Shown in pieces: positions 4,264 to 61,221 of a stretch of DNA of 64,000 bases (the stretch's first letter is position 1; every line of letters starts with the position of its first letter). Made by a program: the position numbers and the translations under genes. The notes under the pieces were generated by a model. It did not search any database, had not been told where the DNA came from, and saw nothing but the letters and a program-made list of their open reading frames with translations. Origin of the DNA: an uncultured Myxococcales bacterium (GTDB taxonomy: Bacteria > Myxococcota_A > Bradymonadia > UBA4248); the NCBI GenBank assembly GCA_945875805.1, contig CAMCLY010000001.1:197-64196 (forward strand), given 5' to 3'.

Positions 4264-4326
4264 CCGCTATTGCCTTCGGCAATACGCGCCGCCGTCGCGC
4301 TATCGGCCCGGGGCCGATACGCGCGA
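4264..4326. repeat. Tandem pair of REP-like GC hairpins (CCGCTATTGCC-ttc-GGCAATACGCG and CGCGCTATCGGCC-cgg-GGCCGATACGCGCG) between rex and hydC.
   Basis: These are inverted repeats read directly. They are members of the window-wide GCGC-TAT-CGGCC hairpin family. Confidence 0.8.
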
Positions 4327-4513
4327 CTTCTATCATGCCATGGGGTTCGGAGGCACCCAAAGCCGAGTGGGGGGACCCTTCCCCCACCCCAGAAACACCA
4401 GAACGTTTGATGAGAATATTGTGAGAAGGAGTTTTGTCTTTTTATAAGATAAAACAGAAATAGGTACGCAAAGGGTTGTCTTTTGCGAATGTAGGACTGC
4501 CAGGGAGAAGAAA

Positions 4514-4999
4514 ATGCAGGACAACAGTGTAAACAACGAGACCGCATCGCGGGTTGACGCGATTATCGAGCGGATTGGGCGTCATCCCGACATGCTCGTG
4601 CCCGTGCTTCAAGCGGCGCAAGAAGAGTTCAAGTATCTGCCTCAGGATGTGATGATGAGCATCGCGCAGGGGCTGAACATTCCGCCCGCCAAGGTGTACG
4701 GGGTGGCGACGTTTTATGCGCACTTTACGCTCGAACCCAAGGGGCGTCACATCATCCGCTGTTGTGACGGGACGGCGTGTCACGTGAAGGGATCGATGGC
4801 GATTATGGATGCCATCCGCTCGCATCTGAACCTGAAGGAAGGCCAGAAAACGACGGCGGACGGGAATTTTTCGCTCGAAATCGTGTCGTGCCTTGGGGCG
4901 TGTGGTCTTGCGCCGGTCATGGTGCTCGACGAAAAAGTGCATGGGCAGTCGAACTCGAAGGACGCCCTCGAAATCATCAAGAGCTGTGAGGAGAAGTAG
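4514..4999 (+). CDS. hydC: [FeFe]-hydrogenase NuoE-like [2Fe-2S] subunit (HydC/HndA type).
   Basis: The 161-aa ORF carries the thioredoxin-like [2Fe-2S] cysteines (CCDGTACHV ... CLGACGLAP) typical of NuoE/HydC. An RBS GGGAGAAG is upstream. It is the first gene of the hydCBA operon. Confidence 0.8.
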   Translation: MQDNSVNNETASRVDAIIERIGRHPDMLVPVLQAAQEEFKYLPQDVMMSIAQGLNIPPAKVYGVATFYAHFTLEPKGRHIIRCCDGTACHVKGSMAIMDAIRSHLNLKEGQKTTADGNFSLEIVSCLGACGLAPVMVLDEKVHGQSNSKDALEIIKSCEEK

Positions 5000-5002
5000 G
5001 CC

Positions 5003-6913
5003 ATGACGACGAAACAGGAAACCTTGGAGAAGATTGCCGCGTCGTACCGCGCGTTTGAATCGAAGATTCAGCGTCGCGTGGTGGTTTGTGCGGGGACGGG
5101 GTGCATTGCGAACGGAAGCCTCGCGATTCGCGATGCGATCATCGAACACGCGAAGAAGGCGGGCCTTGATGTGGTCGTCGAGATGAGCGAGTCGCTGCCC
5201 GAAACGGCGCCGGCCGGGCGCGTGTACATGTCGCGGTCGGGGTGTCAGGGATTCTGCCAGCAGGGGCCGCTCGTGACGGTCGAGCCGGACGGCATTTTGT
5301 ACTGCAAGGTCAATGTGTCTGATGCCGAGGAAATCGTGACGGAAACGCTCGTGGGGCATCGCACCATTCAGCGCCTTTTGTACCTCGATCCGGAATCCCA
5401 GGAACGCTTCGTGGGACAGAAGACGATTCCGTTCTATACGCGTCAGAAACGCACGGTGCTGGCGGAATGCGGCGTGATCGATCCGCACTGCATCTCGGAA
5501 TACATCGCCCGCGGCGGTTATCTCCAGGCGCGTCGTGCCTACCTCGAAATGACGCCCAAAGAAATCTGTGACATGGTGCTCGAAAGCGGTCTGCGCGGTC
5601 GCGGCGGCGGCGGTTTCCCCACCGGTCGCAAGTGGCTGGCGGCACTCGCCGAAAACGGCCCCCGCAAATTCATCGTCTGCAACGCCGACGAAGGCGATCC
5701 GGGCGCATTCATGGATCGTTCGCTGATGGAAGGCGACCCGCACCGCGTCATCGAAGGGATGATGATTGCGGCGCGCGCGATTGGCGCCGAAGAAGGCGTC
5801 ATGTATGTCCGCGCCGAATATCCTCTGGCCGTCGAACGCGTGCGCAAGGCCGTGGACGATGCCGTGGAAGCCGGCGTGCTGGGTGAACACATTTTTGGCA
5901 CCGATCACAAGTTCACGATCCGCATCATGGAAGGCGCGGGCGCCTTTGTCTGCGGCGAAGAAACCGCACTTCTTGCCTCGGTCGAAGGCAACCGCGGCAT
6001 GCCCAAACCCAAGCCGCCTTTCCCCGCACAGAAGGGCCTCTTCCAGTGCCCCACGATCATCAACAACGTCGAGACGCTGGGCACGGTGCCCCTCGTCATT
6101 CGCGACGGCGCCCAGGGATTCCGTGCCAACGGGACCGAGTCAAGCCCGGGCACAAAGACGTTTGCGTTGACGGGACACGTGCAGAACACGGGCCTTATCG
6201 AGGTGCCGTTCGGCACGACGCTGCGCGAAATCGTGTTCGGCGTGGGCGAAGGCGTGACCGATGACGACGGCAAACTCTGCAAGGACGGCTTCAAGTCCGT
6301 ACAAATCGGCGGTCCCTCCGGCGGTTGCCTGACCGAGGAATACCTCGACCTGCCGATGGATTTTGACAACCTGCGCAAGGTGGGGGCCATGGTCGGTTCC
6401 GGCGGTCTCGTCGTGATGAACAAACAGACCTGCATGGTCCAGGTCGCCCGGTTCTTCATGCAGTTCACGCAGAACGAATCGTGCGGCAAATGCGTGCTTT
6501 GCCGCGAAGGCACCAAGCAGATGCTCGACTTGCTCGACCTCATCATCGAAGGCAAGGCCACGATGGAAACGCTCGACACCCTCGAAGCCCTCGCCGGCGC
6601 CATCCAGAAAGGTTCGCTCTGCGCCCTGGGCAAGACGGCTCCAAGCCCCGTCCTCTCGGTACTCAAGCATTTCCGCGCCGAAATGGTCGAACATATCGTC
6701 GACAAAAAATGCAAGACCCACAAGTGCCGCAAACTCTCGCCGTACGCGATCAATGCCGAGGCGTGCAAACGCTGTGGCATGTGCGCAAAGAAATGCCCCG
6801 TGGGCGCCATTACCGGCGACCGTAACGTCGGATTCACCATCAATGAAGATATCTGCATCAAATGCGGTGCGTGTAAGGCCAACTGCAAGTTTGGCGCTGT
6901 CGAAGGAGCCTAA
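5003..6913 (+). CDS. hydB: [FeFe]-hydrogenase NuoF-like NAD(P)H/FMN-binding subunit with extra ferredoxin domains (HydB/HndC type).
   Basis: The 636-aa ORF has an NuoF core with GGGGFPTGRKW, an N-terminal Cys cluster and a C-terminal 2x[4Fe-4S] CxxCxxCxxxCP segment (CKRCGMCAKKCP...CIKCGACKANC). RBS GAGGAG. Confidence 0.85.
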   Translation: MTTKQETLEKIAASYRAFESKIQRRVVVCAGTGCIANGSLAIRDAIIEHAKKAGLDVVVEMSESLPETAPAGRVYMSRSGCQGFCQQGPLVTVEPDGILYCKVNVSDAEEIVTETLVGHRTIQRLLYLDPESQERFVGQKTIPFYTRQKRTVLAECGVIDPHCISEYIARGGYLQARRAYLEMTPKEICDMVLESGLRGRGGGGFPTGRKWLAALAENGPRKFIVCNADEGDPGAFMDRSLMEGDPHRVIEGMMIAARAIGAEEGVMYVRAEYPLAVERVRKAVDDAVEAGVLGEHIFGTDHKFTIRIMEGAGAFVCGEETALLASVEGNRGMPKPKPPFPAQKGLFQCPTIINNVETLGTVPLVIRDGAQGFRANGTESSPGTKTFALTGHVQNTGLIEVPFGTTLREIVFGVGEGVTDDDGKLCKDGFKSVQIGGPSGGCLTEEYLDLPMDFDNLRKVGAMVGSGGLVVMNKQTCMVQVARFFMQFTQNESCGKCVLCREGTKQMLDLLDLIIEGKATMETLDTLEALAGAIQKGSLCALGKTAPSPVLSVLKHFRAEMVEHIVDKKCKTHKCRKLSPYAINAEACKRCGMCAKKCPVGAITGDRNVGFTINEDICIKCGACKANCKFGAVEGA

Positions 6914-6916
6914 GTC

Positions 6917-8662: not shown

Positions 8663-8704
8663 GCGATGCACCGAACGGGGGAATTTCCCCCGCCAGTCGG
8701 CATG

Positions 8705-8746
8705 AAAAAAGCGGGGAAGCGGCCTTGGCCGCTTCCCCGCTTTTGG
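8705..8746. terminator. Bidirectional rho-independent terminator shared by hydA (+) and the convergent adhesin gene (-).
   Basis: AAAAAA is followed by a perfect 14-bp stem gcggggaagcggcc/ggccgcttccccgc and then TTTT. Confidence 0.65.
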
Positions 8747-8780
8747 ATTTGGGGTTTGCGCATGATGCGCAAACCGGGCG

Positions 8781-11420
8781 TTAGTTGACCTGGTTGCCCT
8801 GCGATGCCGGGACGATGATCGACACCTGGCGGCGGCCAAAACTCAGCCCCGTCGTCGGGTTGACGACGTCGATATAGGCTGTAAAGACCTGGGCCTTGTC
8901 GGTCGCTTCGACGCAGGAATCGTTCTGCGCAATGACGGTAAACGTCAGCTGGGCACCGGTCTTGCCGACCGAGGACGTGCCGGGGGCAAAATTGCTGAAC
9001 CCGTTTTGATAGGTGGCTCCGCCCACCGACGTCGGCACGGCCACGGGGTTGCACGATTTTTCGGGTTCCTCCGGAGGCGCGATGTATTCGGTCGCCACCA
9101 CCTGCTTGATGAAGCATTCGGTGCCGTACGGTTTGCCCGGAATGGACTCGCCGGCAATTCGGGTCGATACTTCATACGTGCCGTATTTGACGAGGGCATC
9201 GACGCCCTGGGAAATATACGTCGACACGCTGTCGCCCGTGCCCTTGTAACGCAAAATGCACTGGTCGGGCTTGCCATTGAGGGTTTGACCGCTTTCGCTC
9301 AGCGCGCCGAGACAACATTTGTTTGCGCCGCACGCCCCGTTAAACGCACACGCCGGGACGATCGCATTCGACTCTTTGGCCCACGTCGTCATCTGACCCA
9401 TAGCGTCTGCGCTCCCCACATCGAGCGTGATCACGCGGATACCTTTGTTTTTGAGCTCAGGAAGCAACACGTTGGTGTAGTGGGGATTCGTGACATTGCT
9501 ATTGTATGCGTCATTGTTATAGTCGTGCGACGTGATATCGGTGGCATGCACGACGACGGGAAGGGTGCCCGTGCGGAAATCGACGCCGCCCCACGTGTTC
9601 GGCGTATTCGTGCGAGCCGGCACGCTGCCGCCGTTCCAAGAAACGCCTGCCCCCGTGGCGATTTGGTACAGCGATTCCGCTCCGCTTTCCGGACCGTCTC
9701 CACCGTTACGTGTGGTAAACCACGGGCTCTTTGTATACCCTTGGACAATGGCCGCATCCGTCGACACCGCTCCCAACAGACGGAATGGAAGATCTCCGGC
9801 ACTTGCGCTGCCATAGTTTGAGCTCCAATTTTTATTGACCGGGAAATCATCGAAATTCGTCAGCGCAAAGCCGCTATCGCTCACCATGCCGCGGACATTG
9901 TTGATGATGCCGGTGACATTATTTTTGACGTTATTAATGGTTCCTCCCATCGACCCCGTCGTGTCGACGTTGAACACAAGATCGAGTTTTGAAACCTGCG
10001 GTGTAAAGAGCAATAAGTCGTCTTTTTTGTCACCTCCAAACGGAAGTTCAAAATAAAATTCAAAAACATCCTGCACGCCCAGCGCCGGATCACACACAAG
10101 CGCCTGGGCATCGCTCACCGGCGATCCGTTGAGCAGACCGTGGTTCTTGGCGTATTCACCGGCGGCCAGTTCCGACGCATCGGGATAACCGTCGCCGTCG
10201 GTGTCGGGATTGGTGACGCCGGACACCCCGTTGCACGTGGGTTCGTGGGGATCGAGTACGCCGTCGGCGTCACAATCCGCATGCTGGAAACAATACCGTT
10301 TTGTCCCGCCGGGCATGGTGTACGTGAGGTCTTTCTCTTCCGCATCGGGGATCGTGTCGCCATCCGAATCGAGCGAGTATCGGTCATAATGCCCGTCTCC
10401 ATCCGAATCCGAATACCCTTCGAGGACATCGGGAATCGTGTCGCCGTCCGAATCCGTGGACATATAATCGGGAATGGTGTCGCCGTCCGTATCCCAAGGA
10501 TTTTCGGGGGTACCCGCCTCACACGGCACCCCATCGCACAAGCGCCCGGGCTGACCGTTTGACCCCATCAGACCGGCAATTTCCTCGACATCCGACATCA
10601 TGTCGCCGTCGTTGTCCTCCGAACGATAGTCGGGAATCGTGTCGCCATCCGTATCGACGGGATTTTCGGGATCCGGGCCCACTTCCACGCTGTCCGGAAT
10701 GCCGTTTCCGTCCGAGTCGAGACTCAGAAAATCGTACACGCCGTCGTCGTTTGAATCGATCGGCGCATTGTGCAAATCGCCGCCCGTCTGGCCTTCAATC
10801 GCATCCGGTATCGTGTCGCCGTCCGAGTCCAGATCCTCGCAATCCGGCGTTCCGTCCCCATCCGTGTCGACATCGCAACGATCATAATAGTCCGAAATCG
10901 TGTCGCCGTCCGTGTCACGGTCCGCCATGGCATTGGCAAAACACTTGCCTTCTTCGCAGACCCCCGATGCACAGCTCGCAAATTCGCCCGTACAATCGCC
11001 GCCCAACTCGACCTGCGTGATGCACTGCCCGGACTGGCACAACATCATGTTTCCACATTCCGACGTGCTCTTGCACGCATCCCCCGGAGCGCCTTCGCCC
11101 GTCCCCGTGGCCTGGCATTTTCCGTCCACACAAACGCCCGAACTGCACGGTTTTTCGGCGCTGCATGTCTCGACTTGCGCCGGAACGCACACCCCGGCCT
11201 CGCATTTTCCGGATGGGCATTCCGCATCTCGTTCGCAAGCCACCTCCGAGCCCCCATGCGCCTCGCATACGCCGTTCTTGCACACTTCGCCGTCCTTGCA
11301 GCCAGGCACACAAATCTTGTCATCCAATCCTTCCGGGCGAGGTATCGTGTCGCTCTCACATCCCAGAAATCCTACACTCGCCACTGCGGCTATCAACCAG
11401 GCATAATGTTTTCGTGTCAT
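8781..11420 (-). CDS. Large secreted lipoprotein with N-terminal Cys-rich CxxGxC repeats, about 10 thrombospondin-type-3-like Ca-binding repeats (DxDxDGxxDxxE) and a C-terminal VWA-like domain. It is a putative adhesin.
   Basis: The signal MTRKHYAWLIAAVASVGFLGC is a lipobox. The repeats DTDGDTIPD / DSDGDTIPD recur about 10 times. The VWA MIDAS-like motif LDLVFNVDTTGSMGG is present. The start was trimmed to 11420, where GGAGG lies upstream. Confidence 0.75.
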   Translation of the reverse strand: MTRKHYAWLIAAVASVGFLGCESDTIPRPEGLDDKICVPGCKDGEVCKNGVCEAHGGSEVACERDAECPSGKCEAGVCVPAQVETCSAEKPCSSGVCVDGKCQATGTGEGAPGDACKSTSECGNMMLCQSGQCITQVELGGDCTGEFASCASGVCEEGKCFANAMADRDTDGDTISDYYDRCDVDTDGDGTPDCEDLDSDGDTIPDAIEGQTGGDLHNAPIDSNDDGVYDFLSLDSDGNGIPDSVEVGPDPENPVDTDGDTIPDYRSEDNDGDMMSDVEEIAGLMGSNGQPGRLCDGVPCEAGTPENPWDTDGDTIPDYMSTDSDGDTIPDVLEGYSDSDGDGHYDRYSLDSDGDTIPDAEEKDLTYTMPGGTKRYCFQHADCDADGVLDPHEPTCNGVSGVTNPDTDGDGYPDASELAAGEYAKNHGLLNGSPVSDAQALVCDPALGVQDVFEFYFELPFGGDKKDDLLLFTPQVSKLDLVFNVDTTGSMGGTINNVKNNVTGIINNVRGMVSDSGFALTNFDDFPVNKNWSSNYGSASAGDLPFRLLGAVSTDAAIVQGYTKSPWFTTRNGGDGPESGAESLYQIATGAGVSWNGGSVPARTNTPNTWGGVDFRTGTLPVVVHATDITSHDYNNDAYNSNVTNPHYTNVLLPELKNKGIRVITLDVGSADAMGQMTTWAKESNAIVPACAFNGACGANKCCLGALSESGQTLNGKPDQCILRYKGTGDSVSTYISQGVDALVKYGTYEVSTRIAGESIPGKPYGTECFIKQVVATEYIAPPEEPEKSCNPVAVPTSVGGATYQNGFSNFAPGTSSVGKTGAQLTFTVIAQNDSCVEATDKAQVFTAYIDVVNPTTGLSFGRRQVSIIVPASQGNQVN

Positions 11421-11675
11421 GGTAAACCTCCAATAAAATTTACGCGTTTCGCGCGTGGCAAAGCGCGCTTCGTTCAATTCAACGCCAAAAGATCATGGTG
11501 TCTTTTTTGCCGTGCGTCAATGAATACACGTCTTTTTAAGTGGGCGCGGCCCATTTGAATCTGACGCGATGTGGGTATGAGTGGGAGGGCGCGCCTTTGG
11601 GGGCAGGCCTCCGGCCATGCCCCCATGCGGCTTGCGTTCCCCGGGCTTGCGCCATGCGGCGCTACGCCCGGGGCC

Positions 11676-11708
11676 GGCGGCTATCGGCGTGGCCGATACG
11701 CCGCCGGT
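11676..11708. repeat. REP-like GC hairpin (CGGCTATCGGCG-t-GGCCGATACGCCG) 3' of the korB-G fusion gene.
   Basis: The inverted repeat was read directly. Confidence 0.75.
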
Positions 11709-13081
11709 CCGCCTGGTAGGTGCGTCAAATACGAAAATCCCGCCTCACACGCACGTCGCTGTTCCGCATTCAGGGCGAGCAAATGTGCGGTTTCCACGTC
11801 AAACGCAAGAGCCAAAAATGCCCCCAAAAGAACCATGTTCGCACTGCGCGGGGCATTTTGTGACATCGCCAGGCTCGTGGCTGGAATCCCCAAACGACGT
11901 ACCGAATCCGACACCGGATGTAGCGGTTCGACGCTGTCGCTGTCATACAGCGCCACGCCGTGTTCTGCGACCGACGGCACAAATTTGTCCCAGGCCGGCT
12001 GGTTCATCGCCACCAACACCGACGGGCGGTCGACGACCGGGGACGCAATGCGGCGCGCATCCATGCGCACAAAGCAGTTGGCCGCGCCGCCGCGCATTTC
12101 CGGGCCATACGACGGGATCCACGTCGCCTCATACCCGAGCGAAAGGGCGAGTTCGGCGACGCGATGACCAAACGTCATGACGCCCTGTCCGCCAAATCCC
12201 GCGCAACACAGGGACATCGGCAGTGGCAACTCACAATGTGCTCCGTGGCAAACTTCAACCGGTTTACACAGCGCCTCAAACGGCGCGCGCACGCGTTCGG
12301 GATCATAAGCGCTTGGGCGCTGACGCGCGCGTACCCAGTCTTCGCGCGAAATATCGCGCACGATGCCGGTCGGGAACGTGCGGATCATTTCCTGGGCCAC
12401 CCGATCGCGCGCTTCGACCGGACTGCAGTGCCAGTTCGATGGACATGGACTCAGAATCTCGACAAAACTGTATCCGCGTCCCTGGCGCTGGTTGTCTATC
12501 GCGCGTTTCACCACGCGGCGTGCTTCGAGGATCTGGCGCTCCGTGCCAATGGCCACACGCGCGATAAAGGCAGGCCCGTCCAGACGGTCGAGAAGTTCGC
12601 ACACGCGAATCGGCGCGCCGTGTTCCGCCTCACACCGTCCATGCGGGCATGTGACCGTCGTCTGGCCGCACAGCGTCGTCGGCGCCATTTGACCGCCGGT
12701 CATCCCAAAATTCGCGTTATTGATAAAAAGTACGGTGATATTCTCGCCGCGATTCGCCGCATGAAGCGCTTCCAGCAACCCAATCGAGGCCAGATCGCCG
12801 TCTCCCTGTGACGCAATGACCAACGCGTCCGGATTGGCACGCTTGATGGCCGTCGCCACCGCGCTCGCGCGGCCATGGGCCGCCAGCACATGGGAGATCG
12901 AAAGATACGAATCCGTCAGACCGCCACATCCCACCGGCGAAACCCAGATCGTTTCGGACGCCACGTCGGCGATCGCTTCGTCCACCCACTTTAAAATGTT
13001 GCCGTGACCGCATCCCGGGCAGAAATGCGTCTGCTCGGGGTGACTTGCTTTGCGGTATTCAGGCAGAAATGTCGTCGCCAT
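11681..13081 (-). CDS. 2-oxoacid:ferredoxin oxidoreductase beta subunit (TPP-binding) fused to a gamma subunit. No alpha subunit is adjacent.
   Basis: The N-terminal half has the beta-subunit CPGCGHG and TPP motif GDGD...NNANFGMTGGQ. The C-terminal half has the gamma-subunit GFGGQGV ... GPEMRGG signature. The neighbours on both sides are unrelated genes. Confidence 0.7.
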   Translation of the reverse strand: MATTFLPEYRKASHPEQTHFCPGCGHGNILKWVDEAIADVASETIWVSPVGCGGLTDSYLSISHVLAAHGRASAVATAIKRANPDALVIASQGDGDLASIGLLEALHAANRGENITVLFINNANFGMTGGQMAPTTLCGQTTVTCPHGRCEAEHGAPIRVCELLDRLDGPAFIARVAIGTERQILEARRVVKRAIDNQRQGRGYSFVEILSPCPSNWHCSPVEARDRVAQEMIRTFPTGIVRDISREDWVRARQRPSAYDPERVRAPFEALCKPVEVCHGAHCELPLPMSLCCAGFGGQGVMTFGHRVAELALSLGYEATWIPSYGPEMRGGAANCFVRMDARRIASPVVDRPSVLVAMNQPAWDKFVPSVAEHGVALYDSDSVEPLHPVSDSVRRLGIPATSLAMSQNAPRSANMVLLGAFLALAFDVETAHLLALNAEQRRACEAGFSYLTHLPGGPAAYRPRR

Positions 13082-13099
13082 CGCTCCTCGCGCGTGATG

Positions 13100-13645: not shown

Positions 13646-13684
13646 CACTTCGTTCTCCTGTGGAGTGAATCGCATTTCTCTTTT

Positions 13685-14917: not shown

Positions 14918-15053
14918 GTTCCCCTCAAAACGCTGGGCTTCGGTGGTCACGGCCACATTTTGTGTACGCGTGACCACACAAAGAGGTTTGCCAAGACGTC
15001 TGCTTCTACCCTCGAAACGCAACGGTTGTCGAACTTTTCGCATTTAAAAAAAA

Positions 15054-15128
15054 GCCGCGCGTATTGGCCCGTGGGGCCAATAGCGCGGCAGCGAGTCGTA
15101 TCGCGGGCGCACGGCGCCGCGATAGACG
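15054..15128. repeat. Tandem pair of REP-like hairpins (GCGCGTATTGGCC-cgtg-GGCCAATAGCGCGG and GTCGTATCGCGG-gcgcacggcg-CCGCGATAGAC).
   Basis: The inverted repeats were read directly. They lie between the convergently oriented 3' ends of two minus-strand genes. Confidence 0.75.
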
Positions 15129-15214
15129 AGCGCCATGCCCATGACGAGGGTCAAAAAAAAGGCCGCGCGGATTGACCGCACGACCTTTTGAACACGGGTT
15201 ATTGGGGCTTTGCG

Positions 15215-16641: not shown

Positions 16642-16661
16642 GATAGATCATACGCTTAAAA

Positions 16662-16734
16662 AGCCAGTGCTCGGACTCGAACCGAGGACCTGCGCATTAC
16701 GAATGCGCCGCTCTACCAACTGAGCTACACTGGC
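16662..16734 (-). tRNA. tRNA-Thr (anticodon CGU), copy 1.
   Basis: The reverse complement GCCAGTGTAGCTCAGTTGGTAGAGCGGCGCATTCGTAATGCGCAGGTCCTCGGTTCGAGTCCGAGCACTGGCT folds as a cloverleaf with anticodon loop TTCGTAA. Confidence 0.85.
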
Positions 16735-16753
16735 AAAAATCAGCCATTAAAAA

Positions 16754-16826
16754 AGCCAGTGCTCGGACTCGAACCGAGGACCTGCGCATTACGAATGCGC
16801 CGCTCTACCAACTGAGCTACACTGGC
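16754..16826 (-). tRNA. tRNA-Thr (anticodon CGU), copy 2. It is identical in sequence to copy 1.
   Basis: An identical 73-nt sequence lies 92 bp from copy 1. Confidence 0.85.
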
Positions 16827-20922: not shown

Positions 20923-21071
20923 CGGGTTTCTCCTTCGATAGGGGACGGCCAATGCCGCCGAGTTCTCATGTTGAGTAGCCTGAAAAAAAAAGGCGCGGCG
21001 TATCGAGGCCCATGGCCGAGATAGCCGCGCCCGCAAGCCCGTATCCGACAGGATAGGGCGCGTCCAAACCC

Positions 21072-21599
21072 TCAAAGACCGCCGCGTATCTTCCACGCAC
21101 CGTCTTCCTTGACGAGCGTCATACGGTTCGTGTCATTTTTGGATTGCCAGTACGATTGCCCCGCCACTTCATAGCGGAAATTCCAGATGTACTGATAGTC
21201 GACGTAGTATTCCATGCCCTCGTGCGTCAGTTGCTTGATTTGAATGATAAAACGAATATCCTTTACGGATTGCACGAGATAGTCGTTAAATATTTCATCA
21301 AGACGTTCGTTGCCATAATCATCGGTCAGATCGTCGGTCGTCGATGCGTTCTCGTAGTATTCCTTGGAAATCATCGAACGCAACGTGGCCACGTCCTTTT
21401 GGGCCATCGCATCGCGGTATTTTTGCACCGTCCGGAGTATCTCGACGTGGGGATCCTCGTCGGGGATTTGCGACGCCTCATCAATGGAAAAATAATACGG
21501 TTGTCCGAAATCGCTCGTCTCGAGCATGCTCGCTCCGCATCCCGAAAGACTTATGGCGAGTGCGGCGGCGATGAAAAGTGTTTTGAGTTTGACGACCAT
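21072..21599 (-). CDS. Small lipoprotein, NTF2/SnoaL-like. The function is hypothetical.
   Basis: The signal MVVKLKTLFIAAALAISLSGC is a lipobox. The protein is 175 aa with no catalytic motif. Confidence 0.5.
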   Translation of the reverse strand: MVVKLKTLFIAAALAISLSGCGASMLETSDFGQPYYFSIDEASQIPDEDPHVEILRTVQKYRDAMAQKDVATLRSMISKEYYENASTTDDLTDDYGNERLDEIFNDYLVQSVKDIRFIIQIKQLTHEGMEYYVDYQYIWNFRYEVAGQSYWQSKNDTNRMTLVKEDGAWKIRGGL

Positions 21600-22869: not shown

Positions 22870-22990
22870 GGTGGGGGAAGTGTCCCCCCAACGCCGCTAT
22901 TTGCCTGCGGCAAATACGCGTCGCCCCCCTCGCCTCTCCCCCCGGCCCCCTCTCCAGCGGAGAGGGGGAGAAACGCGTCACCCGGGGGCT
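22870..22990. repeat. Composite intergenic repeat, copy A. It comprises the G5/C6 hairpin GGGGGAAGTGTCCCCCC, a REP hairpin GCTATTTGCC-tgc-GGCAAATACGC, a C-rich tract, and the hairpin CTCTCCagcGGAGAG.
   Basis: It is near-identical in layout to 55636-55745 (copy B). The distal hairpin has compensatory changes. Confidence 0.7.
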
Positions 22991-28964: not shown

Positions 28965-31088
28965 ATGAAACAAAACAAACTTTTTATATGGGCATGGTTG
29001 CTCACGTGCGTCCTCTGGACGGGATGCGACGATTCGGTAACGGTCCGTGTGTCGTGTGAGGAGCAAAACGCAACGCTGTGTGTGAATAATAAAGTATATA
29101 TATGTATAGATCATACATGGCAGAATCCTCAAGATTGTGTGGCAGGGTGTGATGATGCAAAAAAGACATGTTTAGAAAAGTGCAAAGAAAGTCAAGAACG
29201 ATGCAGTGATGATAAAAATAATATAGAAGTTTGTCAATCCGATGGAACGTGGCAGTCACATCCGTGTGGTGAAGGGCAGAAATGCGATATTGAAAATGTG
29301 AGATGTGAGCCTGAATCGGATGATGTTGAATGTACAGAAGAAAATTATCAATGTACAGGAACAATACTACAGGTTTGCAAGTCTGGAAATTGGGAGACCA
29401 GTAAAGAGTGCAACGAAGGAGAAATATGTGATGAGGATTCGCAGTCTTGCATGAAAAAACCTGTAGAAAATAAATGCAGTGAAGAAGGAAAGATTCAATG
29501 TAGAAACGAAGGCGATTCGCATTATATGATGTGTAAGGGTGGAATATGGACTTTAGAAGAATGTCCAGAAGATGAGGCTTGTTTTGGTGATGATTGTCGT
29601 AAGAAGTGTGAACATGATGAAATAAATTCAGTGTGTCAAGGCGTAGATAAAATTGAAGTGTGTCATCAAGAGGGCTATTGGGACGAATTGCAGAAATGTG
29701 AAGCGGAAAAACAATGTATTGAAAATGATGTGGATGGAAAAAAAGTTGCGCGTTGTGTAGAAAAATGTGATCCTAACAAGGTTTTTCTTCAGTGTGCAAA
29801 AAATATATCAATAGGGGGTGAAAATATTGAGATGTTAGAGGTATGTTATAATGATAGGTTGCATTTGTTCGGTGAGAAATGTATGTATGGCTGTGATGAT
29901 GAGAAAATGAAATGTCGAGAATGTAAGCAAGGTGGCGGTTGCTTTATTTACGACACATTATCCATGTCTAAAGAAAAGGGCTACTATGCTTTTTGTAAGG
30001 ACGGTTATTGGTCGTATAGCGTGTGTGATCAAGATGGAGTGAGTTGTGATGAATACAAAAATGAATGTACTTGTGTGAGTGGGCAAAAAATATGTGCAGT
30101 GGATAAAAATGGTACAGATGTTATGTTGATGTGTGAAAATGAAAGATGGCGTTCGGTCTATTGTCCACAAAGTGAAAAGGGCGATGGATGTGATGGGGGT
30201 AGGAATAAGTGTGTGTCAATAGGAGATACGGCTGTATGGGGAGAATGTTCGCTTGATGATGTATATGGATATTATGGTAAAGATAATAAAAATTATTATA
30301 AAAAATGTAATACTCAAGGGATGTGGAAAGAAATAGAAACTTGCGAGGGTGATAATTGTGATAAAGTGACTTATAATGAATGTGTTTCAGGAAATTCATA
30401 TTGCGCAAAAGATGGTACTATTTTATCTTGTAATGGCGGTAAATTGCAAGTGGATGAAAAATGTGAAGCTTGTAGTGAGTATAATGATAATGACAAGGTA
30501 AAGGCTAAATGTGAAGGATGTAAAAACGGTGTATTTGGATGTGAAGATAATAAACTGTCTAGATGTGAGCATGGTGATTGGGTTGAGATGGATGAGTGTG
30601 AGGATGACTTGGTTTGTAATAGTGAAATAGGTGTTTGTCACAAGATGATTGAACGCAACTCTTGTGCGGCTAATGGGGGAATTGCGTATGCGCTCCTTTT
30701 GGATAAAAATTCTGATCAAAAACAAATAATCCAGTGTGAAAATAAATGTTATGTGTATGATGATAATCAATCGGCGGTGGCATGTGATAAGGATTCTCTT
30801 GGGAATTATGCTTCTCTGGATGGAGACGGTGTGTGGCGGGTTAAACATCCATATGCAATAGAAATAACATGTCCTAACGAAGTTATCACCACGGATTGGT
30901 ATAGATGTTCTCTTTTTAATGAAAACTTTAAATGTATAGAAGGTCGTTATCAATGTGGTCAGAATAATAGTGTAGAATTGTGTGTTGGGGAATCTTGGAG
31001 ATCCGAATATCAAAATGTCGGAACCTGTCCTAAAGGAACAAGGTGCGATGATTCTGGCAACTTCGTCCGATGTGTGCCAAATGACTAA
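28965..31088 (+). CDS. Cys-rich repeat lipoprotein (Myxococcus-type cysteine-rich repeats). The gene body is strongly A+T-rich.
   Basis: The lipobox is MKQNKLFIWAWLLTCVLWTGC. The 707-aa protein has about 90 Cys in recurring C..G.C...C motifs. The nucleotide composition switches from GC-normal (the first roughly 120 nt) to A+T-rich for about 1.9 kb. Confidence 0.7.
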   Translation: MKQNKLFIWAWLLTCVLWTGCDDSVTVRVSCEEQNATLCVNNKVYICIDHTWQNPQDCVAGCDDAKKTCLEKCKESQERCSDDKNNIEVCQSDGTWQSHPCGEGQKCDIENVRCEPESDDVECTEENYQCTGTILQVCKSGNWETSKECNEGEICDEDSQSCMKKPVENKCSEEGKIQCRNEGDSHYMMCKGGIWTLEECPEDEACFGDDCRKKCEHDEINSVCQGVDKIEVCHQEGYWDELQKCEAEKQCIENDVDGKKVARCVEKCDPNKVFLQCAKNISIGGENIEMLEVCYNDRLHLFGEKCMYGCDDEKMKCRECKQGGGCFIYDTLSMSKEKGYYAFCKDGYWSYSVCDQDGVSCDEYKNECTCVSGQKICAVDKNGTDVMLMCENERWRSVYCPQSEKGDGCDGGRNKCVSIGDTAVWGECSLDDVYGYYGKDNKNYYKKCNTQGMWKEIETCEGDNCDKVTYNECVSGNSYCAKDGTILSCNGGKLQVDEKCEACSEYNDNDKVKAKCEGCKNGVFGCEDNKLSRCEHGDWVEMDECEDDLVCNSEIGVCHKMIERNSCAANGGIAYALLLDKNSDQKQIIQCENKCYVYDDNQSAVACDKDSLGNYASLDGDGVWRVKHPYAIEITCPNEVITTDWYRCSLFNENFKCIEGRYQCGQNNSVELCVGESWRSEYQNVGTCPKGTRCDDSGNFVRCVPND

Positions 31089-33750: not shown

Positions 33751-33846
33751 GCGGTCTATGCTTTGGCATACGCCCGCGCATTTTTCTGTGTGTCGGCATC
33801 ACCAGAGGGATTGGGCGAGCGTATCGGCCGCGCCGATAGCTCGCCC
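33751..33846. repeat. Two REP-like hairpins (GTCTATGC-tttg-GCATACGC and GCGAGCGTATCGGCC-gcg-CCGATAGCTCGC) upstream of dnaK.
   Basis: The inverted repeats were read directly. Confidence 0.7.
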
Positions 33847-34032
33847 GGGGCGCGCGTATTGGGCACCGGAGGTGTCCCAAAAGCGCCCCCCACAAAAAAC
33901 GCAAAAAAAATTTGCCCTTACCGAACGGTGTTTACTCTCCCGGGCCAGTTGCGAGGCACGAAAAAAACGTGCGCAGTGATCATTACGGTCCGACGGGCCG
34001 TTTGCATATTTTATAAAAAAGGAGAGATTGAT

Positions 34033-38802: not shown

Positions 38803-38835
38803 ATTTTCTAATAATAGATATTTGTGTGTCGATAT

Positions 38836-38866
38836 AAAAAAAGCTCCGTTTGACGGAGCTTTTTTT
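38836..38866. terminator. Bidirectional terminator within the 21-bp perfect palindrome gtcgatataaaaaaagctccg / cggagctttttttatatcgac.
   Basis: The hairpin AGCTCCGtttgaCGGAGCT has an A-run 5' and a T-run 3'. It sits between convergent genes. Confidence 0.65.
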
Positions 38867-38893
38867 ATATCGACATGAATCTTAAATTAGAAT

Positions 38894-39412: not shown

Positions 39413-39630
39413 GGGATTGTCGAGGTGAAAAGAAGGTGAGTGAATCCGCATGGGGTAGGCGGTATGAGCGATGTGAGGGGGTAGGCGCGTATCGCGCGGT
39501 GGTCTAAAAAACGGCGATGCGGTCTATTATGTGGCGTCCGATTATGGCGCCTTGTTTCATGCACCGCGCGATAGCGACGTAGGGGGAGGCTTCCCCCCCC
39601 CCAAAAAAAACACCACAGGATTGGAAGGGG

Positions 39631-46805: not shown

Positions 46806-46850
46806 TCTGTTTGTGTGGATCGGACATCCATAGATAATTTTGGGGGGCTC

Positions 46851-46941
46851 GCCTGTTGCCTTTGGCAACACGGCTTTGCGCCGTGCCTATTGCATACGGC
46901 ACGGCCCGGCGCGCTATCGGCCTATGGCCGATACGCGCGCC
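46851..46941. repeat. Three consecutive REP-like hairpins (CCTGTTGCC-ttt-GGCAACACGG; GCCGTGCCTAT-tgc-ATACGGCACGGC; GCGCGCTATCGGCC-tat-GGCCGATACGCGCGC).
   Basis: Read directly. Confidence 0.75.
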
Positions 46942-46973
46942 GGAAAGATTCTGGAGAACGGAGGAGTTGGGGA

Positions 46974-47270
46974 TTAGAGAATGTGTTGGCGTTTGGCCTC
47001 AAAATAGATAAATGGAGCTTCGTTATAAAGTTTGTCAGGGTGATTTTTGTGATTGTCCCAACAGGCGCATCGATGTTCGCAAAAAATGTCATTATTGAGT
47101 TTCAAAAGTTCAATAGTGTTTTCAACTTGCACCTTTATTGTCTCAGGCATTGAAGGGTTCGCAAATACAGAGCCATCTAAAAAGTTGTAATAAAACCAAC
47201 CTGTTTCTATTTTAAAAGGATCGAGTGATGATGCAAATTTTCTCAAAAAGAAATCCAACAGGTTGGACAT
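46974..47270 (-). CDS. Small A+T-rich orphan ORF. The start is uncertain; the ORF track extends it to 47405 via TTG.
   Basis: The 98-aa version starts MSNLLDFFLRKF. It contains CEHRCACWDNHKNH. It lies within an A+T-rich segment of about 450 bp. There is no RBS and no homolog recognised. Confidence 0.3.
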   Translation of the reverse strand: MSNLLDFFLRKFASSLDPFKIETGWFYYNFLDGSVFANPSMPETIKVQVENTIELLKLNNDIFCEHRCACWDNHKNHPDKLYNEAPFIYFEAKRQHIL

Positions 47271-48274: not shown

Positions 48275-48486
48275 CGGTGTTTGTGGATATGCGAAGTTGG
48301 GCGCGAGTGGCGCAAGGGACGCGTTTCTCTGAGGGGCGGGGGGGCTTTGTGTGGGGTTCAGGCGGGAGGTTGCGTGTTATCCGATGGCGTCTGGTGCCCT
48401 GCGTGTGGATGGGGGATGTCAAAAAAAAGAACAGGTCACGCGGGAGAAGTTTTTTTTATGGATTTGCATGGGTTGCGGAAAAAAAA

Positions 48487-48559
48487 GCGGCGCGTATCGG
48501 CGGTTGGCCGATAGCGCCGCGCGCATGGCGTATCCGCCCGGAGGGCGGATAGCCTGCGC
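48487..48559. repeat. Tandem pair of REP-like hairpins (GCGCGTATCGGCG-gtt-GGCCGATAGCGCC; GGCGTATCCGCCC-ggag-GGCGGATAGCC).
   Basis: Read directly. Confidence 0.75.
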
Positions 48560-50843: not shown

Positions 50844-50845
50844 TA

Positions 50846-52396: not shown

Positions 52397-52413
52397 GAAC
52401 GTGCCTCGCAAAG

Positions 52414-54930: not shown

Positions 54931-55079
54931 GATCCTTTCCTCCTCGTCATGGCGTCCGGATACAAAAAGAAAATCGGACGCGCGCGCTATCTACACGAAA
55001 GTTTGCGTTTTCACAAACCCCCATGGGAGGCCATTTCCTCGGATTGTTTCAAAATTTGCCCCAACGCCGTGCGGGCTTT

Positions 55080-55592: not shown

Positions 55593-55635
55593 CGACGCGG
55601 TTGGGACGGATACTCGCCATTTTTTTGGAGGGGTG

Positions 55636-55745
55636 TGTGGGGGAAGTGTCCCCCCAACGCGGCTATTTCGGCTTCGCCTCAATACGCCGCGCCCCCCTCT
55701 CCCCCTCCCCCGGCCCCTCCCCTGCAGGGAGGGGGGGCCGGGTCT
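55636..55745. repeat. Composite intergenic repeat, copy B (GGGGGAAGTGTCCCCCC; degenerate REP hairpin; C-rich tract; CCCTCCCctgcagGGAGGG hairpin).
   Basis: Its layout is parallel to 22870-22990. The distal hairpin has compensatory substitutions. Confidence 0.7.
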
Positions 55746-55782
55746 CTTCCTGCCGGTACTTTTTTCTTCACTTTGATGTGTT

Positions 55783-56439: not shown

Positions 56440-56441
56440 GG

Positions 56442-56514
56442 GCGAGCGCGTATCTGGCCGGAGGGCAGATAGCGCGAGCGGCGGGGCGTATCCGCCCCCG
56501 GCGGATAGCCCGCC
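56442..56514. repeat. Tandem pair of REP-like hairpins (CGCGTATCTGGCC-ggag-GGCAGATAGCGCG; GGCGTATCCGCCC-ccg-GCGGATAGCCCGCC).
   Basis: Read directly. Confidence 0.75.
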
Positions 56515-56701
56515 TCATGCAGAATCCGCGATAAAAAGCGAAGCGTTTCGGACGTATGTCGAATTTTTGAAGAGGCGGGGCCGTTTTTTAAAAAAAGTCC
56601 CATACAGAGTCGGACGGACGAAACAGTTTCCGCGTTGCGCGGGTTGGGAATCTTTGCCATACTTATAAGGATTATTCCTTTTTTGTGGCACGGAGGAAAA
56701 G

Positions 56702-59047: not shown

Positions 59048-59072
59048 CCCTTATCGATAAAGGAAATGTCCG

Positions 59073-59990
59073 ATGAAGATGAAATGGTTTCAATTCGTAC
59101 TGGCTCTATCGTGCATCGCCAGCAGTGCGGCTTTCCTCCCCTCCGCGTTTGCGCAGGACGCTCAGCCGCGCGACGGCGAGATGGTCAAGATTCGCTTTGA
59201 TGCGCTGTGGAAACTTCAGTATTTGCCCAATGCACCTGTCAGGGATGCGGCGGTCATCGCGCGGGATCTCAAGTCTCCGTCGATCTCTCCCGACGGATCC
59301 CAGGTTGTCATGTTCAAGCGCGGTCTGGACGGCGAGCCCAACGCGCTGTCGCGTTGGTCGCGCGGCGACGTGCAGACCATCGTGCGCGACGAACAGGTTT
59401 CGATGTTCATCACGTGGAATGATGAAAAAAACATCTCTGTGCGTCAGTTTGACAGGCCATTTTTTGAGAATGGCGAAAAGTTGAACTTTACGCTGGATGG
59501 CAAGGGCGCGCGCTTGCGAGATCGGAAGCCGTTGCGTTCGGAAGCCGTCCGTGCGTTTGATGCCGACGACGTCATTCTTCTCGTGCGTCAGGACACGCGT
59601 ACGCTTCAGGCGATTTCGGACACCTCTTCGGATCGGTATTTTGGTCCCGTGGTGTCTCCGGATTCGCGATTTGTGGTGTATAACGGCCTGACGACGGGGG
59701 TTCATTTGTTTGATGTCGAGGCCAACGCCGTCGTGTTTATCGGTCTGCATGGCACCCATCCGACGTTTTCGCCGGACGGGCGTTATCTCATGTATACCGA
59801 CACGCGCGATGACGGTCACACGTTTACTCAGGGGAATCTCGTCGTGATCGACCTGCGAGAAAAAACCTTCCGTTTTGTGTCGAACCCTGACGGCGAAATC
59901 CGCATTCACGGCACGCTGAGCCGTGACGGACGGTTCGTGGCGTACGAAACAGACGATGGACGCATTATGCGGGCCGGCTTGTTCGAGTGA
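59073..59990 (+). CDS. Secreted TolB-like beta-propeller protein.
   Basis: A signal peptide is present. Recurring SPDG / SPDS strands appear (SISPDGSQVVMF, VVSPDSRFVVY, TFSPDGRYLMY, TLSRDGRFVAY). Confidence 0.6.
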   Translation: MKMKWFQFVLALSCIASSAAFLPSAFAQDAQPRDGEMVKIRFDALWKLQYLPNAPVRDAAVIARDLKSPSISPDGSQVVMFKRGLDGEPNALSRWSRGDVQTIVRDEQVSMFITWNDEKNISVRQFDRPFFENGEKLNFTLDGKGARLRDRKPLRSEAVRAFDADDVILLVRQDTRTLQAISDTSSDRYFGPVVSPDSRFVVYNGLTTGVHLFDVEANAVVFIGLHGTHPTFSPDGRYLMYTDTRDDGHTFTQGNLVVIDLREKTFRFVSNPDGEIRIHGTLSRDGRFVAYETDDGRIMRAGLFE

Positions 59991-60019
59991 ACGCTGGGTG
60001 AGAGGGTGATCGTGGTGTG

Positions 60020-60099
60020 CGCGGGCTATCTGCCGGTGGCAGATACGCCTTGCGCGCGGCGCTATCCGCCGGTGGCGGATACGCGCCGCTTTTTTTTTG
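60020..60099 (+). terminator. Tandem REP-like hairpins (GGGCTATCTGCC-ggt-GGCAGATACGCC; GCGGCGCTATCCGCC-ggt-GGCGGATACGCGCCGC) followed by T10. They act as the terminator of the TolB-like gene.
   Basis: The second hairpin is immediately followed by tttttttttt. Confidence 0.5.
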
Positions 60100-60107
60100 T
60101 CTTGGGG

Positions 60108-61034
60108 TTAAAGCGTATACAGATCCGGTTTTTCTTCGGTGATGCGCCGATATTTTTGGGGGTGCAGGGCTCTGTCGAGAATGCCCGGATGGACGATGAA
60201 CGATTTGGTTCGCGTTTCGGTGGGACCGACAGAGAGGCCCATCAGACGTCCGTCGAGGGTGAACATGGGGTATCCGTTTCTCGCCGTATGGTTTGACATG
60301 CCGTAGAGATGGGCGGTGTCGACGTGGAGGACGTGCTGTGTGAGGCTTTCGTAGGGGGTGTTTGGGCTGAGCATGAGATAGGCGTGCGCGGGGATGGGGG
60401 CTTCGGGGTCAAAGGGAAGGACCGCGACGCCGTCGACCTTGGGGTGGGGGGCGGTCGAAAGGACGGCGACGTTTTGCGCATCGTCGCGGTAGTCGAGTTG
60501 TGCGACGACATCGGTGTTGGCGATGCGCACGGTAAACGATGTGCTGCCGGTGAGCCAGTCGGCGGTGGTGAGGTAGTATTGTCGCGAGGCGGAGACATTT
60601 TCTTTGGCCGTCGGCCGACTGGCAAAGGGACTTGAGACGGATTCAAGCCCGCGTCCAAAAAAACTCGTCGGTGGGACGTCTGTGTCGGGGTGAGAATCTC
60701 CGGGTTGTGGGATTTTTTGGAATGCTTCCGGGGGGAGGATGTCCTGGAGGGCGTCGGGCTGGACCGCCGCAGCGGCCCCGTCAAAGGCGAGGCCGTTGCC
60801 GTCATAGGGATGGCTTGGTGTCTGTGAAGCGTGAACGATGAAGACGGCTTTTTCCAGGCGCTTCTGGAGTTTGCCGTGTGCGCTCATGGAGAGCGTGAGA
60901 TCGTCAGCGTGAAGGACGGTTTGGGTGCCGCCACCGGGTGTTTGGGCTTGTGCAGTAGGGATCGCCATAAACAGTATCCCTACTGCGAGCGTGAAGCCGT
61001 TTGTTTGCACAGCCATTCTCCTCACAGCAGACAT
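60108..61034 (-). CDS. Secreted hypothetical protein. An alternative start lies at 61016.
   Basis: The signal is MAVQTNGFTLAVGILFMAIPTAQAQ. No catalytic motif was recognised. Confidence 0.45.
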   Translation of the reverse strand: MSAVRRMAVQTNGFTLAVGILFMAIPTAQAQTPGGGTQTVLHADDLTLSMSAHGKLQKRLEKAVFIVHASQTPSHPYDGNGLAFDGAAAAVQPDALQDILPPEAFQKIPQPGDSHPDTDVPPTSFFGRGLESVSSPFASRPTAKENVSASRQYYLTTADWLTGSTSFTVRIANTDVVAQLDYRDDAQNVAVLSTAPHPKVDGVAVLPFDPEAPIPAHAYLMLSPNTPYESLTQHVLHVDTAHLYGMSNHTARNGYPMFTLDGRLMGLSVGPTETRTKSFIVHPGILDRALHPQKYRRITEEKPDLYTL

Positions 61035-61154
61035 GGCGTATCGCCATGCGCGGTTTTGCGTTTTATGAAGGAGAAACGGGGGGATGGCAACTTTTGGGTC
61101 TTGGGCCGAAACGCGAGGTCTCGTGCGGGCGCTTTAGCGCCCCCAAAAAAGAAA

Positions 61155-61221
61155 GCCGCCGCGTATCGTCCCGCAGGGCGATAGCGGCGGCCGGGCGCGG
61201 CGTATGAAATAGCCGCGCGCC
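61155..61221. repeat. Tandem REP-like hairpins (GCCGCCGCGTATCG-tcccgcag-GGCGATAGCGGCGGC; GGCGCGGCGTAT-gaa-ATAGCCGCGCGCC) 3' of lgt.
   Basis: Read directly. Confidence 0.75.

Follow-up and report, generated by a model that had tools for sequence, protein, structure and literature searches.

Scattered through the intergenic spaces of a 64,000-nucleotide stretch of DNA from an uncultured bacterium labelled Myxococcales (contig CAMCLY010000001.1, positions 197 to 64,196; hereafter the window) are short GC-rich hairpins that resemble one another closely enough to raise a simple question: are they a dispersed repeat, a set of transcription terminators, or sites for a protein? A first-pass annotation of the sequence had taken them for a family of hairpins akin to repetitive extragenic palindromes (REPs), and had listed 20 positions plus one split copy. 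The reading that we favour, to which we give a probability of about 0.7, is that they are lineage-specific, REP-like dispersed hairpin repeats, which are copied at the level of DNA, accumulate at the 3' ends of genes, exert there a terminator or 3'-barrier effect, and carry a core that is read by a protein.

One family of hairpins in the window

All 20 listed positions were checked and all prove to be GC-rich hairpins of one family. A covariance model was built from 15 clean copies (brought into the same orientation and aligned) and the window was scanned with filters off: 19 distinct sites score at E<0.01, none of them in coding DNA. A register-aware scan of the window returned 20 clean copies, every one of which carries a one-base bulge – bulge-free copies number zero – just as had been claimed for the family. 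Three copies not on the original list were found, all on the minus strand (20991-21032, 21037-21059 and 33848-33891), and three of the listed copies are diverged (33751, 46851 and 55658). In total the window holds 24 family copies in 13 clusters, a density of 0.28 per kb. The split copy at 39484-39578 is as it had been described: the arms GCG-TAT-CGCGCGGTG and CACCGCGCG-ATA-GCG are present, together with the bulge, and are separated by an insert of 62 nt; the distal arms are unpaired in the minimum-energy fold.

Chance is excluded as the source of these hairpins by three measures. A strict sub-pattern gives six matches in the window where 0.43 are expected; bulged TAT...ATA hairpins of any kind number 31, of which 20 have the C, where Markov simulations give 2.3 on average; and folding z-scores of the window's hairpin pairs and clusters range from -2.5 to -8.1.

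Anatomy: an invariant core within covarying stems

The unit is 26-40 nt in length and consists of an outer stem of 3-9 bp, the triplet TAT, a variable inner stem with a loop of 3-5 nt, the triplet ATA, an extra C, and the second side of the outer stem. In all 20 clean copies the bulged base is the C directly 3' of ATA (read on the other strand, the G 5' of TAT). A scan blind to TAT was run over the window and over related loci from other genomes (described below), and accepted any hairpin with a single-base bulge whose outer and inner helices measured at least 5 and 3 bp, respectively, and whose loop had 3-8 nt. It found 226 hairpins, of which 117 have the combination of a C bulge beside TAT/ATA; the runner-up combination was found five times. 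In 180 of 181 copies TAT adjoins a C-G pair, and the invariant core, C-TAT...ATA-C-G, is situated mid-stem, with the C after ATA extrahelical. Between the half-sites (consensus GCTATC and GATACGC) the inner segment spans 3-29 nt, and there are short forms that lack an inner stem (TAT-TGC-ATA-C). Isolated half-sites are not enriched: GATACGC occurs six times outside hairpins, against an expected 7.2 in total.

Around this core the stems vary in a compensatory manner, which bears out the original observation. Covariation was counted on 77 distinct sequences aligned to the covariance model: 12 of the 17 pairs vary on both sides, occupying 184 cells against 79.7+-5.6 in shuffled data (0 of 500 shuffles were as high), while the five invariant pairs are those of the core. 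Sliding the partner column lowers pairing from 89% to 30-39%. In a model-free comparison, confined to positions that the scanner does not require, each copy's own arms pair at 0.72-0.98 of positions and swapped arms at 0.30-0.53; C-G, G-C, T-A and A-T are all found at most of these positions. Few G-U pairs occur, and they are no more frequent than other mismatches (6 G-U vs 6 A-C, a count confounded by second bulges), and because G-U is not enriched the covariation cannot separate constraint on RNA from constraint on DNA. The claim of selection at the level of structure thus stands in part: a palindrome bound by a protein as duplex is on its own unlikely, since the element is asymmetric, with half-sites spaced 3-29 nt apart that are not enriched in isolation, but the step from structure to RNA goes too far, as a DNA hairpin fits equally well.

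The consensus had also been called distinct, and this agrees with what databases and literature yield. No Rfam family matches (the window gives two tRNAs at gathering score, and nothing relevant at E<=5 over 59950-61300), and the motif is not described in the literature searched.

Head-to-tail clusters of unlike units

Of 111 clusters, 58 contain 2-5 copies, and in 55 of these 58 all copies are arranged head-to-tail, with gaps mostly of 0-10 nt. A second, independent set of loci (120 metagenome loci with 237 copies) gives the same picture, 56 of 57 multi-copy clusters being head-to-tail throughout. Tandem pairing, as first noted, is therefore the rule, and the pairs are head-to-tail. The partners are nevertheless unlike: adjacent copies have the inner sequence in common in just 4 of 52 pairs, and the 5' partner has the shorter perfect outer stem in 28 cases vs 9, its stem often being lengthened by way of a second small bulge (for example GCGCG-GGC...GCC-TT-GCGC). 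Composition was examined position by position over 20 nt on each side of 107 + 105 clusters, and no GTAG or CGTC end tag is present. Target-site duplications were not found, flanking direct repeats being no commoner than in shuffled flank pairs. T-rich DNA upstream of 40 of 107 clusters in other species was considered as a defined target and rejected, having proved to be a mixture of upstream terminators and AT-rich spacer.

How do these properties compare with those of known repeats? The REPs of Proteobacteria (the E. coli REPs and their bacterial interspersed mosaic elements, or BIMEs; Pseudomonas REPINs, a paired form of REP; Stenotrophomonas SMAG) are, like the present hairpins, GC-rich imperfect palindromes of 20-40 nt that are extragenic and present in hundreds of copies. 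They too prefer sites 3' of open reading frames (ORFs) between tandem and convergent genes, and cluster there (PMC3733652); they too show subfamily variation in the stem, species-specific expansions and some copies that enter ORF ends, and they have a likely effect on mRNA 3' ends (PMC3733652; bioRxiv 2026.03.23.713779). REPs fall, however, into two super-families defined by an unpaired GTAG or CGTC end tag (PMC3733652), whereas the present family has no end tag and its conserved bases are internal (C-TAT...ATA-C-G, with the bulged C). BIMEs and REPINs have their units alternating or inverted; among the dimers of REP families, according to Di Nocera et al. 2013 (PMC3733652), the head-head kind predominates and the head-tail kind is 'absent, or under-represented'. 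Dimers of the present family are almost all head-to-tail. Its host, moreover, is an uncultured gut lineage labelled Myxococcota.

The 'untagged' REP-like stem-loops of M. tuberculosis, D. radiodurans, Bordetella, Brucella and cyanobacteria (PMC3733652) are likewise dispersed palindromes with neither a terminal motif nor a known transposase, although an internal bulged core combined with head-to-tail unlike pairs was not found described for them in the literature searched (published descriptions were compared). The ends of IS200/IS605 elements and integron attC sites share with the present hairpins a conserved extrahelical base that, set in a variable and compensated stem, distinguishes the strands. 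Extrahelical bases are the logic by which HUH transposases and IntI achieve strand-specific recognition. The present units differ in being much shorter than attC, in lacking the core motifs, in not lying at the ends of a longer element and in having no associated transposase or integrase gene.

The family is thus REP-like yet a variety of its own – with an internal core, head-to-tail pairs of unlike units and one-sided T-runs (see below) – and is not a new kind of system. Of the earlier label, 'REP/BIME or MITE-like', the REP part holds; likeness to BIMEs or to miniature inverted-repeat transposable elements (MITEs) does not, given the head-to-tail clusters and the lack of target-site duplication.

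Position relative to genes

A gene map of the window was taken from public gene calls on near-identical contigs. The genes are of housekeeping character and include clpX, clpP, tig, rex, a NuoE/F-hydrogenase operon, a 2-oxoacid:ferredoxin oxidoreductase, nhaA, pmbA/tldD, ino1, eno, dnaK, amylases, an amidase, lgt and others. Intergenic DNA makes up 12.3% of the window, and 12 of the 13 clusters lie wholly within it (p~1e-12 for the 13 clusters, with the overlapping one counted as intergenic). The statement that all copies are intergenic needs a single correction, which concerns cluster 11673: it alone overlaps a gene, running into the last ~9 codons of the oxidoreductase.

Eleven clusters are situated between tandem genes (seven co-oriented with the genes, three antisense, one mixed) and two between convergent genes, while none of the five divergent regions is occupied, in accord with the claim that copies lie mostly at 3' ends. 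Over all loci, divergent regions hold 9 of the 74 clusters for which the context could be resolved. Outside the window genes were called with a codon-model gene caller, which is imperfect (37-40 of the 44 stops in the window were recovered).

T-runs and termination

Six of the 13 clusters in the window end in a T-run of 7-9 nt. The copies concerned are those at 15052, 20991, 48485, 60054 and 61154, which are co-oriented, and 56445, which is antisense. A T-run lies within 12 nt, in the C-bulge orientation, of 22 of 187 copies, and on the opposite strand of one; in the second set of loci the figures are 36 of 237 vs 0, so that over both sets T-runs are one-sided by 58:1. By context, T-runs accompany 7 of 27 co-oriented tandem clusters, 5 of 20 convergent clusters and 1 of 18 antisense clusters. 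Because the T-runs are so strictly one-sided, one orientation of the element is tied to termination.

For four units – the 175-aa gene, the amylase operon, the amidase-PD40 operon and lgt – a hairpin pair with its T-run is the sole terminator-like signal. Ordinary terminators are found elsewhere in the window (hydA with the 880-aa gene, the tRNAs, ino1, the 776-aa gene and dnaK), and some family copies sit beyond a canonical terminator (ino1, the 776-aa gene and nhaA). The canonical terminators were listed by means of a bulge-free terminator scan, which overall does no better on the window than on shuffles, and which misses the family because it permits no bulges.

Judged by sequence, the T-run copies would qualify as intrinsic terminators, as a subset of the family only. 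This subset is found almost always where an upstream gene could be terminated; the family as a whole is weakly oriented by transcription. Antisense clusters have hairpins just as strong yet no T-runs on the gene's strand, which in our view makes it more probable that some units bring a T-tail with them, retained only where useful, than that the tail evolves in place. Terminators, furthermore, are not a sequence family. They share with the copies at six of the window's clusters a GC-rich hairpin followed by a T-run, whereas the present hairpins have a common core and bulge, mostly lack a T-run and include a large antisense minority. A role at transcript ends has a parallel in E. coli, where REPs are terminator or stabiliser elements in 3' untranslated regions (bioRxiv 10.64898/2026.03.23.713779).

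The copies of the window are as follows (coordinates in the window, strand, description).

4259..4291, plus: copy 1 of a head-to-tail pair; hairpin 4265-4288, inner stem TGCC/GGCA, E=2.8e-4; GGGGGGCTC directly before, rex upstream, hydrogenase operon downstream.
4292..4329, plus: copy 2 of the same pair; 7-bp outer stem, CGGCC inner stem, bulged C, without a T-run; 52.1 bits.
11673..11708, plus: single copy, antisense to the flanking genes; encodes the final ~9 codons of the 2-oxoacid:ferredoxin oxidoreductase ORF (11681..13081, minus).
15052..15091, minus: second (3') copy of the pair after nhaA; 7-bp outer stem, then T8 (plus-strand A-run 15046-15053); terminator-like.
15092..15130, minus: first (5') copy of the pair after nhaA; outer stem short, inner stem long; E=0.0027.
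20991..21032, minus: copy absent from the first list; 8-bp outer stem, 2x2 internal loop in the inner stem, then T9; 32.3 bits; sole terminator-like signal after the 175-aa gene (21072..21599, minus).
21037..21059, minus: copy absent from the first list; short first copy of the pair, GCCC-TAT-CC..GG-ATA-C-GGGC.
22889..22926, plus: copy within a ~120-nt composite repeat (22871-22990), G-run/C-run hairpins on either side; antisense to the flanking genes and beyond the canonical terminator of ino1.
33751..33777, plus: diverged copy upstream of dnaK; TAT-GC..GC-ATA-C, one outer-stem mismatch, then ATTTTTCTG; the covariance model gives weak nearby matches only (E~0.5-0.8).
33812..33847, minus: clean copy upstream of dnaK; 8-bp outer stem, orientation opposite to 33751; 44.3 bits.
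33848..33891, minus: degenerate copy absent from the first list, adjoining 33812; ATA changed to AAA; E=0.0057.
39484..39578, minus: split copy with family arms and bulge, 62-nt insert; the same in six other strains.
46845..46881, plus: first of three head-to-tail copies after the 502-aa gene; GGGGGGCTC before; core TAT/ATA changed to TGT/ACA, a compensatory change, with the bulged C retained; model E=2.
46880..46905, plus: second of the triple, short form; 8-bp outer stem, TAT-TGC-ATA-C, without an inner stem.
46906..46943, plus: third of the triple; 9-bp outer stem, 51 bits; a strain-variable cassette starts just 3'.
48485..48522, minus: second copy of the pair after the alpha-amylase operon, then T8; sole terminator-like signal there.
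48523..48558, minus: first copy of that pair; a second small bulge lengthens the outer stem (GCGCA-GGC / GCC-AT-GCGC).
55655..55694, plus: diverged copy in the second composite repeat (55637-55760), at whose end are a strong GC hairpin and a T-run; inner stem degenerate; E=0.0019.
56445..56476, minus: second copy of a pair lying antisense between two plus-strand genes; then CCCTATTTTTT on the minus strand.
56479..56516, minus: first copy of the 56445 pair; 46.8 bits.
60020..60053, plus: first copy of the pair after the amidase-PD40 operon; GCGCG-GGC / GCC-TT-GCGC.
60054..60098, plus: second copy (60054-60091) with T9; top-scoring copy, 53.3 bits; sole terminator-like signal after the amidase-PD40 operon.
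61154..61192, minus: second copy of the pair after lgt; then TTTCTTTTTT.
61193..61220, minus: first copy of the pair after lgt; short form TAT-TTC-ATA-C, 7-bp outer stem; E=0.0039.

The sequence GGGGGGCTC precedes the first copy of two clusters (at 4245-4264, where it stands in tandem twice, and at 46842-46850); the two first copies, at 4259 and 46845, have ~80% identity to each other, G-run included. The composite repeat is likewise present twice (22871-22990 and 55637-55760), the first 32 nt being 97% identical. It is made up, in order, of a GGGGGA...TCCCCC hairpin, the family hairpin, and a C-rich tract that ends in a strong G/C hairpin; similar copies flanked by G-runs and C-runs occur in loci of termite-gut (WQTY) and CAMKRB metagenome-assembled genomes (MAGs).

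Taxonomic range, strains and species

Metagenome contigs from human and pig guts, as well as MAG GCA_965320195.1, encode proteins identical to those of the window. A scan of the GTDB set (one genome per species) for the core pattern gave matches mostly in ~10 species-level MAGs from the guts of ruminants, humans and termites, which bear the labels Myxococcota, Myxococcales or 'Proteobacteria'; several of the hairpin-bearing MAGs are syntenic with the window, at 63-76% nucleotide identity. Core matches in other taxa were set aside as chance, the outer stem being absent or the site lying in a conserved coding region. A link to phages was also considered and dropped: viral contigs gave one match, a genuine pair from the same lineage.

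The first-pass annotation had proposed that copy positions be compared between related strains. The clusters all keep their places across ~20 contigs from the window's species, which differ there only in T-run length and single nucleotides of the loop, except that in one strain (L002) the 60020/60054 pair has recombined into one hybrid copy. Occupancy is not the same from one species to another: where the window has a canonical terminator at the 3' end of the 880-aa gene, JAZODZ has two family copies and JAFUEE three. JAZODZ has one identical 34-mer on five contigs and one outer arm shared by 10 copies, while the window's 18 clean copies are all mutually different. This pattern is as expected of a copied repeat population that is expanding in some lineages and decaying in others. 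A pair in opposite orientation at a seemingly orthologous place (L041) was discarded, as synteny breaks there and the two sites are not comparable.

Some clusters in several related MAGs are mosaics, in which the bulged hairpins are interspersed with those of an unrelated second family, AGAGACGT-N-ACGTCTCT. Its sites occur at 17 loci (for example L028 2448-2469, L051 3397-3418 and 5665-5686, and L074 35-57), and it is absent from the window.

Search for a mobilising enzyme

The annotated genes of the window include no transposase or integrase. To represent the REP-associated tyrosine transposases (RAYTs), whose genes are typically flanked by REPs, E. coli TnpArep (identical to PDB 4ER8) was used as a phmmer query against six-frame ORFs. 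No match was obtained in 618 kb + 770 kb of hairpin-flanking DNA (about 1.3 Mb, with ~420 copies), a weak negative, because RAYTs are usually single-copy and a few per cent of each genome was sampled. A query with an IS608 TnpA sequence gave nothing beyond noise in the first ORF set and only matches at E>0.05 in the second; a screen of the second ORF set for HUH plus YxxxNP motifs returned noise only. Clustering of the ORFs of hairpin-flanking loci revealed no small recurrent ORF beside the clusters; what recurred were solely large paralogous proteins of 600-1200 aa.

Large paralogous proteins of 600-1280 aa recur at hairpin-flanked loci of related MAGs (L014, L015, L024, L046, L058 and others). 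An IS3-family element, with rve integrase and HTH_Tnp_2 ORFs, is present in one strain only (L096 18585-19999, ~0.6-2 kb past the right end of the window); no family hairpin flanks it.

Other features of the window

Two tandem tRNA-Thr(CGU) genes lie at 16647-16826 on the minus strand, 92 nt apart and 94% identical including flanks. Their copy number is polymorphic in the species: two copies are found in 6 of 10 spanning contigs and one in 4 of 10. Just 3' of the triple hairpin cluster is a strain-variable cassette (46944-47225), part of an unannotated 143-aa ORF; four of six contigs have at least 1.4 kb in its place, with the gene for a 427-aa AAA_23/SMC_N-type ATPase and a small ORF, and homology resumes at 47226. 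The 502-aa protein to the left of the cassette has no exact match on record.

The segment 28000-32000 combines low GC (45% vs ~58%) with a strong GC skew of 0.31, and the plus-strand ORF 28965..31088 (707 aa, no Pfam match) is called as two genes in some strains. Five genes contain tandem or periodic repeats that keep the reading frame: the gene for the 776-aa protein (31638-32182, units of 153 nt), that for the 244-aa protein (37314-37445, units of 18 nt), that for the FHA protein (41005-41124, units of 30 nt), lgt at its 3' end (61241-61345, units of 21 nt) and the gene for the 880-aa protein (10240-10917, a recurring 39-nt motif). Between convergent genes at 38827-38875 is a perfect 23-bp AT-rich palindrome (TGTCGATATAAAAAAAGCTCCG TTT CGGAGCTTTTTTTATATCGACA), which looks like a bidirectional terminator and is unrelated to the hairpin family.

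Discussion

From the anatomy, covariation, distribution, arrangement and taxonomic range of the hairpins we infer both a function and a mode of spread. Units would propagate by DNA-level copying, by means of an enzyme, and would accumulate 3' of genes as head-to-tail arrays, mostly of unlike pairs. Once transcribed, a unit should form a very stable 3' hairpin: to judge from their structure, copies that are co-oriented with the upstream gene and followed by a T-run would act as intrinsic terminators, whereas the remaining transcribed copies are most likely 3' exonuclease barriers or attenuators, a behaviour that has been demonstrated for the REPs of E. coli. The invariant bulged core is most likely recognised by a protein on a folded single strand, be it DNA or RNA.

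Several points weigh against this interpretation. No mobilising enzyme was found in the sampled DNA, and no copy gain was seen among the ~20 same-species contigs, so that ongoing mobility is unproven. Some 85-90% of copies have no T-run, and what speaks for termination or stabilisation is the structure of the hairpin. Clusters in tandem context, taken over all loci, divide into 27 co-oriented and 18 antisense (~40% antisense, as judged with an imperfect gene caller), an orientation bias so weak that the family is not simply a set of terminators. The invariance of the core is in part a matter of construction for the seed copies of the related loci, which were chosen by exact core match. The copy densities of those MAG loci, 0.2-0.6 per kb, are inflated for the same reason – each was chosen for one exact core match – and the window's own density is the fairer figure.

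It is possible, though we consider it unlikely, that the hairpins are a classical REP-RAYT system of the REPIN type, in which a single-copy IS200/IS605-like Y1 transposase, encoded elsewhere, mobilises the hairpins and reads the bulge on single-stranded DNA. Such a system would account for the conserved irregularity in the hairpin, the high copy number and extragenic location, the species-specific subfamilies and the identical copies at unlinked loci; the lack of G-U enrichment is consistent with a constraint on DNA, and HUH/Y1 enzymes are known readers of bulged DNA hairpins. Yet there is no GTAG-type 5' tag, the dimers are head-to-tail and not inverted (cf. PMC3733652), and neither about 1.3 Mb of flanking DNA nor the annotation of the window has a Y1 match, a negative that, as stated above, is weak.

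A bolder reading is doubtful to a similar degree. It holds that the family is a new class of self-propagating 3'-end modules, each an unlike head-to-tail pair with an optional T-tail; an enzyme other than a RAYT would copy them, recognising the folded single strand by its extrahelical C and TAT/ATA core, and the host would have come to rely on the modules as terminators. If this were true, the 58:1 bias of T-runs would mean that the T-tail travels with the element and has not evolved in place.

The opposite possibility, that nothing moves and the hairpins are terminators or 3'-end hairpins evolved in place, with the core kept for a host RNA-binding or termination factor, we regard as improbable. 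It is the reading that location at 3' ends would suggest, as would the orientation of T-runs (22:1 and 36:0), the pairs that are the sole terminator-like signal for four units, and the stability of positions within the species. It does not sit well with the antisense clusters, with the majority of copies that lack a T-run, or with copies that lie beyond a canonical terminator (ino1, the 776-aa gene, nhaA) or, in one case, enter a coding sequence; nor would it predict identical 34-mers on five contigs of one species, or G-U pairs that are not favoured.

Much less probable still is that the hairpins are operator palindromes, bound as duplex by a global regulator or a nucleoid protein: the inverted repeat with its conserved half-sites (GCTATC / GATACGC) speaks for this, but spacing varies from 3 to 29 nt, the one-base asymmetry is always kept, the stems covary, divergent promoter regions are avoided and single half-sites occur at the expected frequency. 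A DNA uptake sequence is a conserved 9-12-mer found as single sites in strong excess across a genome. Inverted pairs of such sequences, comparable to the DUS/USS terminators of Neisseria and Haemophilus, would match the high density and the terminator-like inverted pairs, but can be dismissed almost entirely, as GATACGC is no more frequent outside hairpins than expected, genes hold no copies and the conserved part is just 5-7 nt per arm. MITEs or attC sites are equally hard to credit: the hairpins are small non-coding repeats with an extrahelical base reminiscent of attC, but target-site duplications are not above chance, 26-40 nt is far under the size of a MITE (70-300 bp, bounded by terminal inverted repeats) or attC (57-141 bp, with R/L boxes, one site to a gene cassette and an IntI integrase nearby), the consensus has no GTTRRRY core, adjoining units (gaps 0-10 nt) enclose no cassette, and no integrase or transposase is annotated in the window.

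The preferred reading, of lineage-specific and DNA-copied REP-like repeats, has consequences of two kinds. In practical terms, the core motif marks this lineage specifically in gut metagenomes, and the hairpins probably add to broken assemblies, many copies being at contig ends. More broadly, REP-type repeats are among the commonest non-coding elements of bacteria, and both their spread and their role are debated, while knowledge of them comes almost wholly from Proteobacteria, where the GTAG/CGTC tag and inverted pairing are the rule. Because the present family breaks both rules – its core is internal and its clusters are head-to-tail – it offers a useful contrast case for asking whether such repeats need a RAYT, and whether terminators may be drawn from dispersed repeats.

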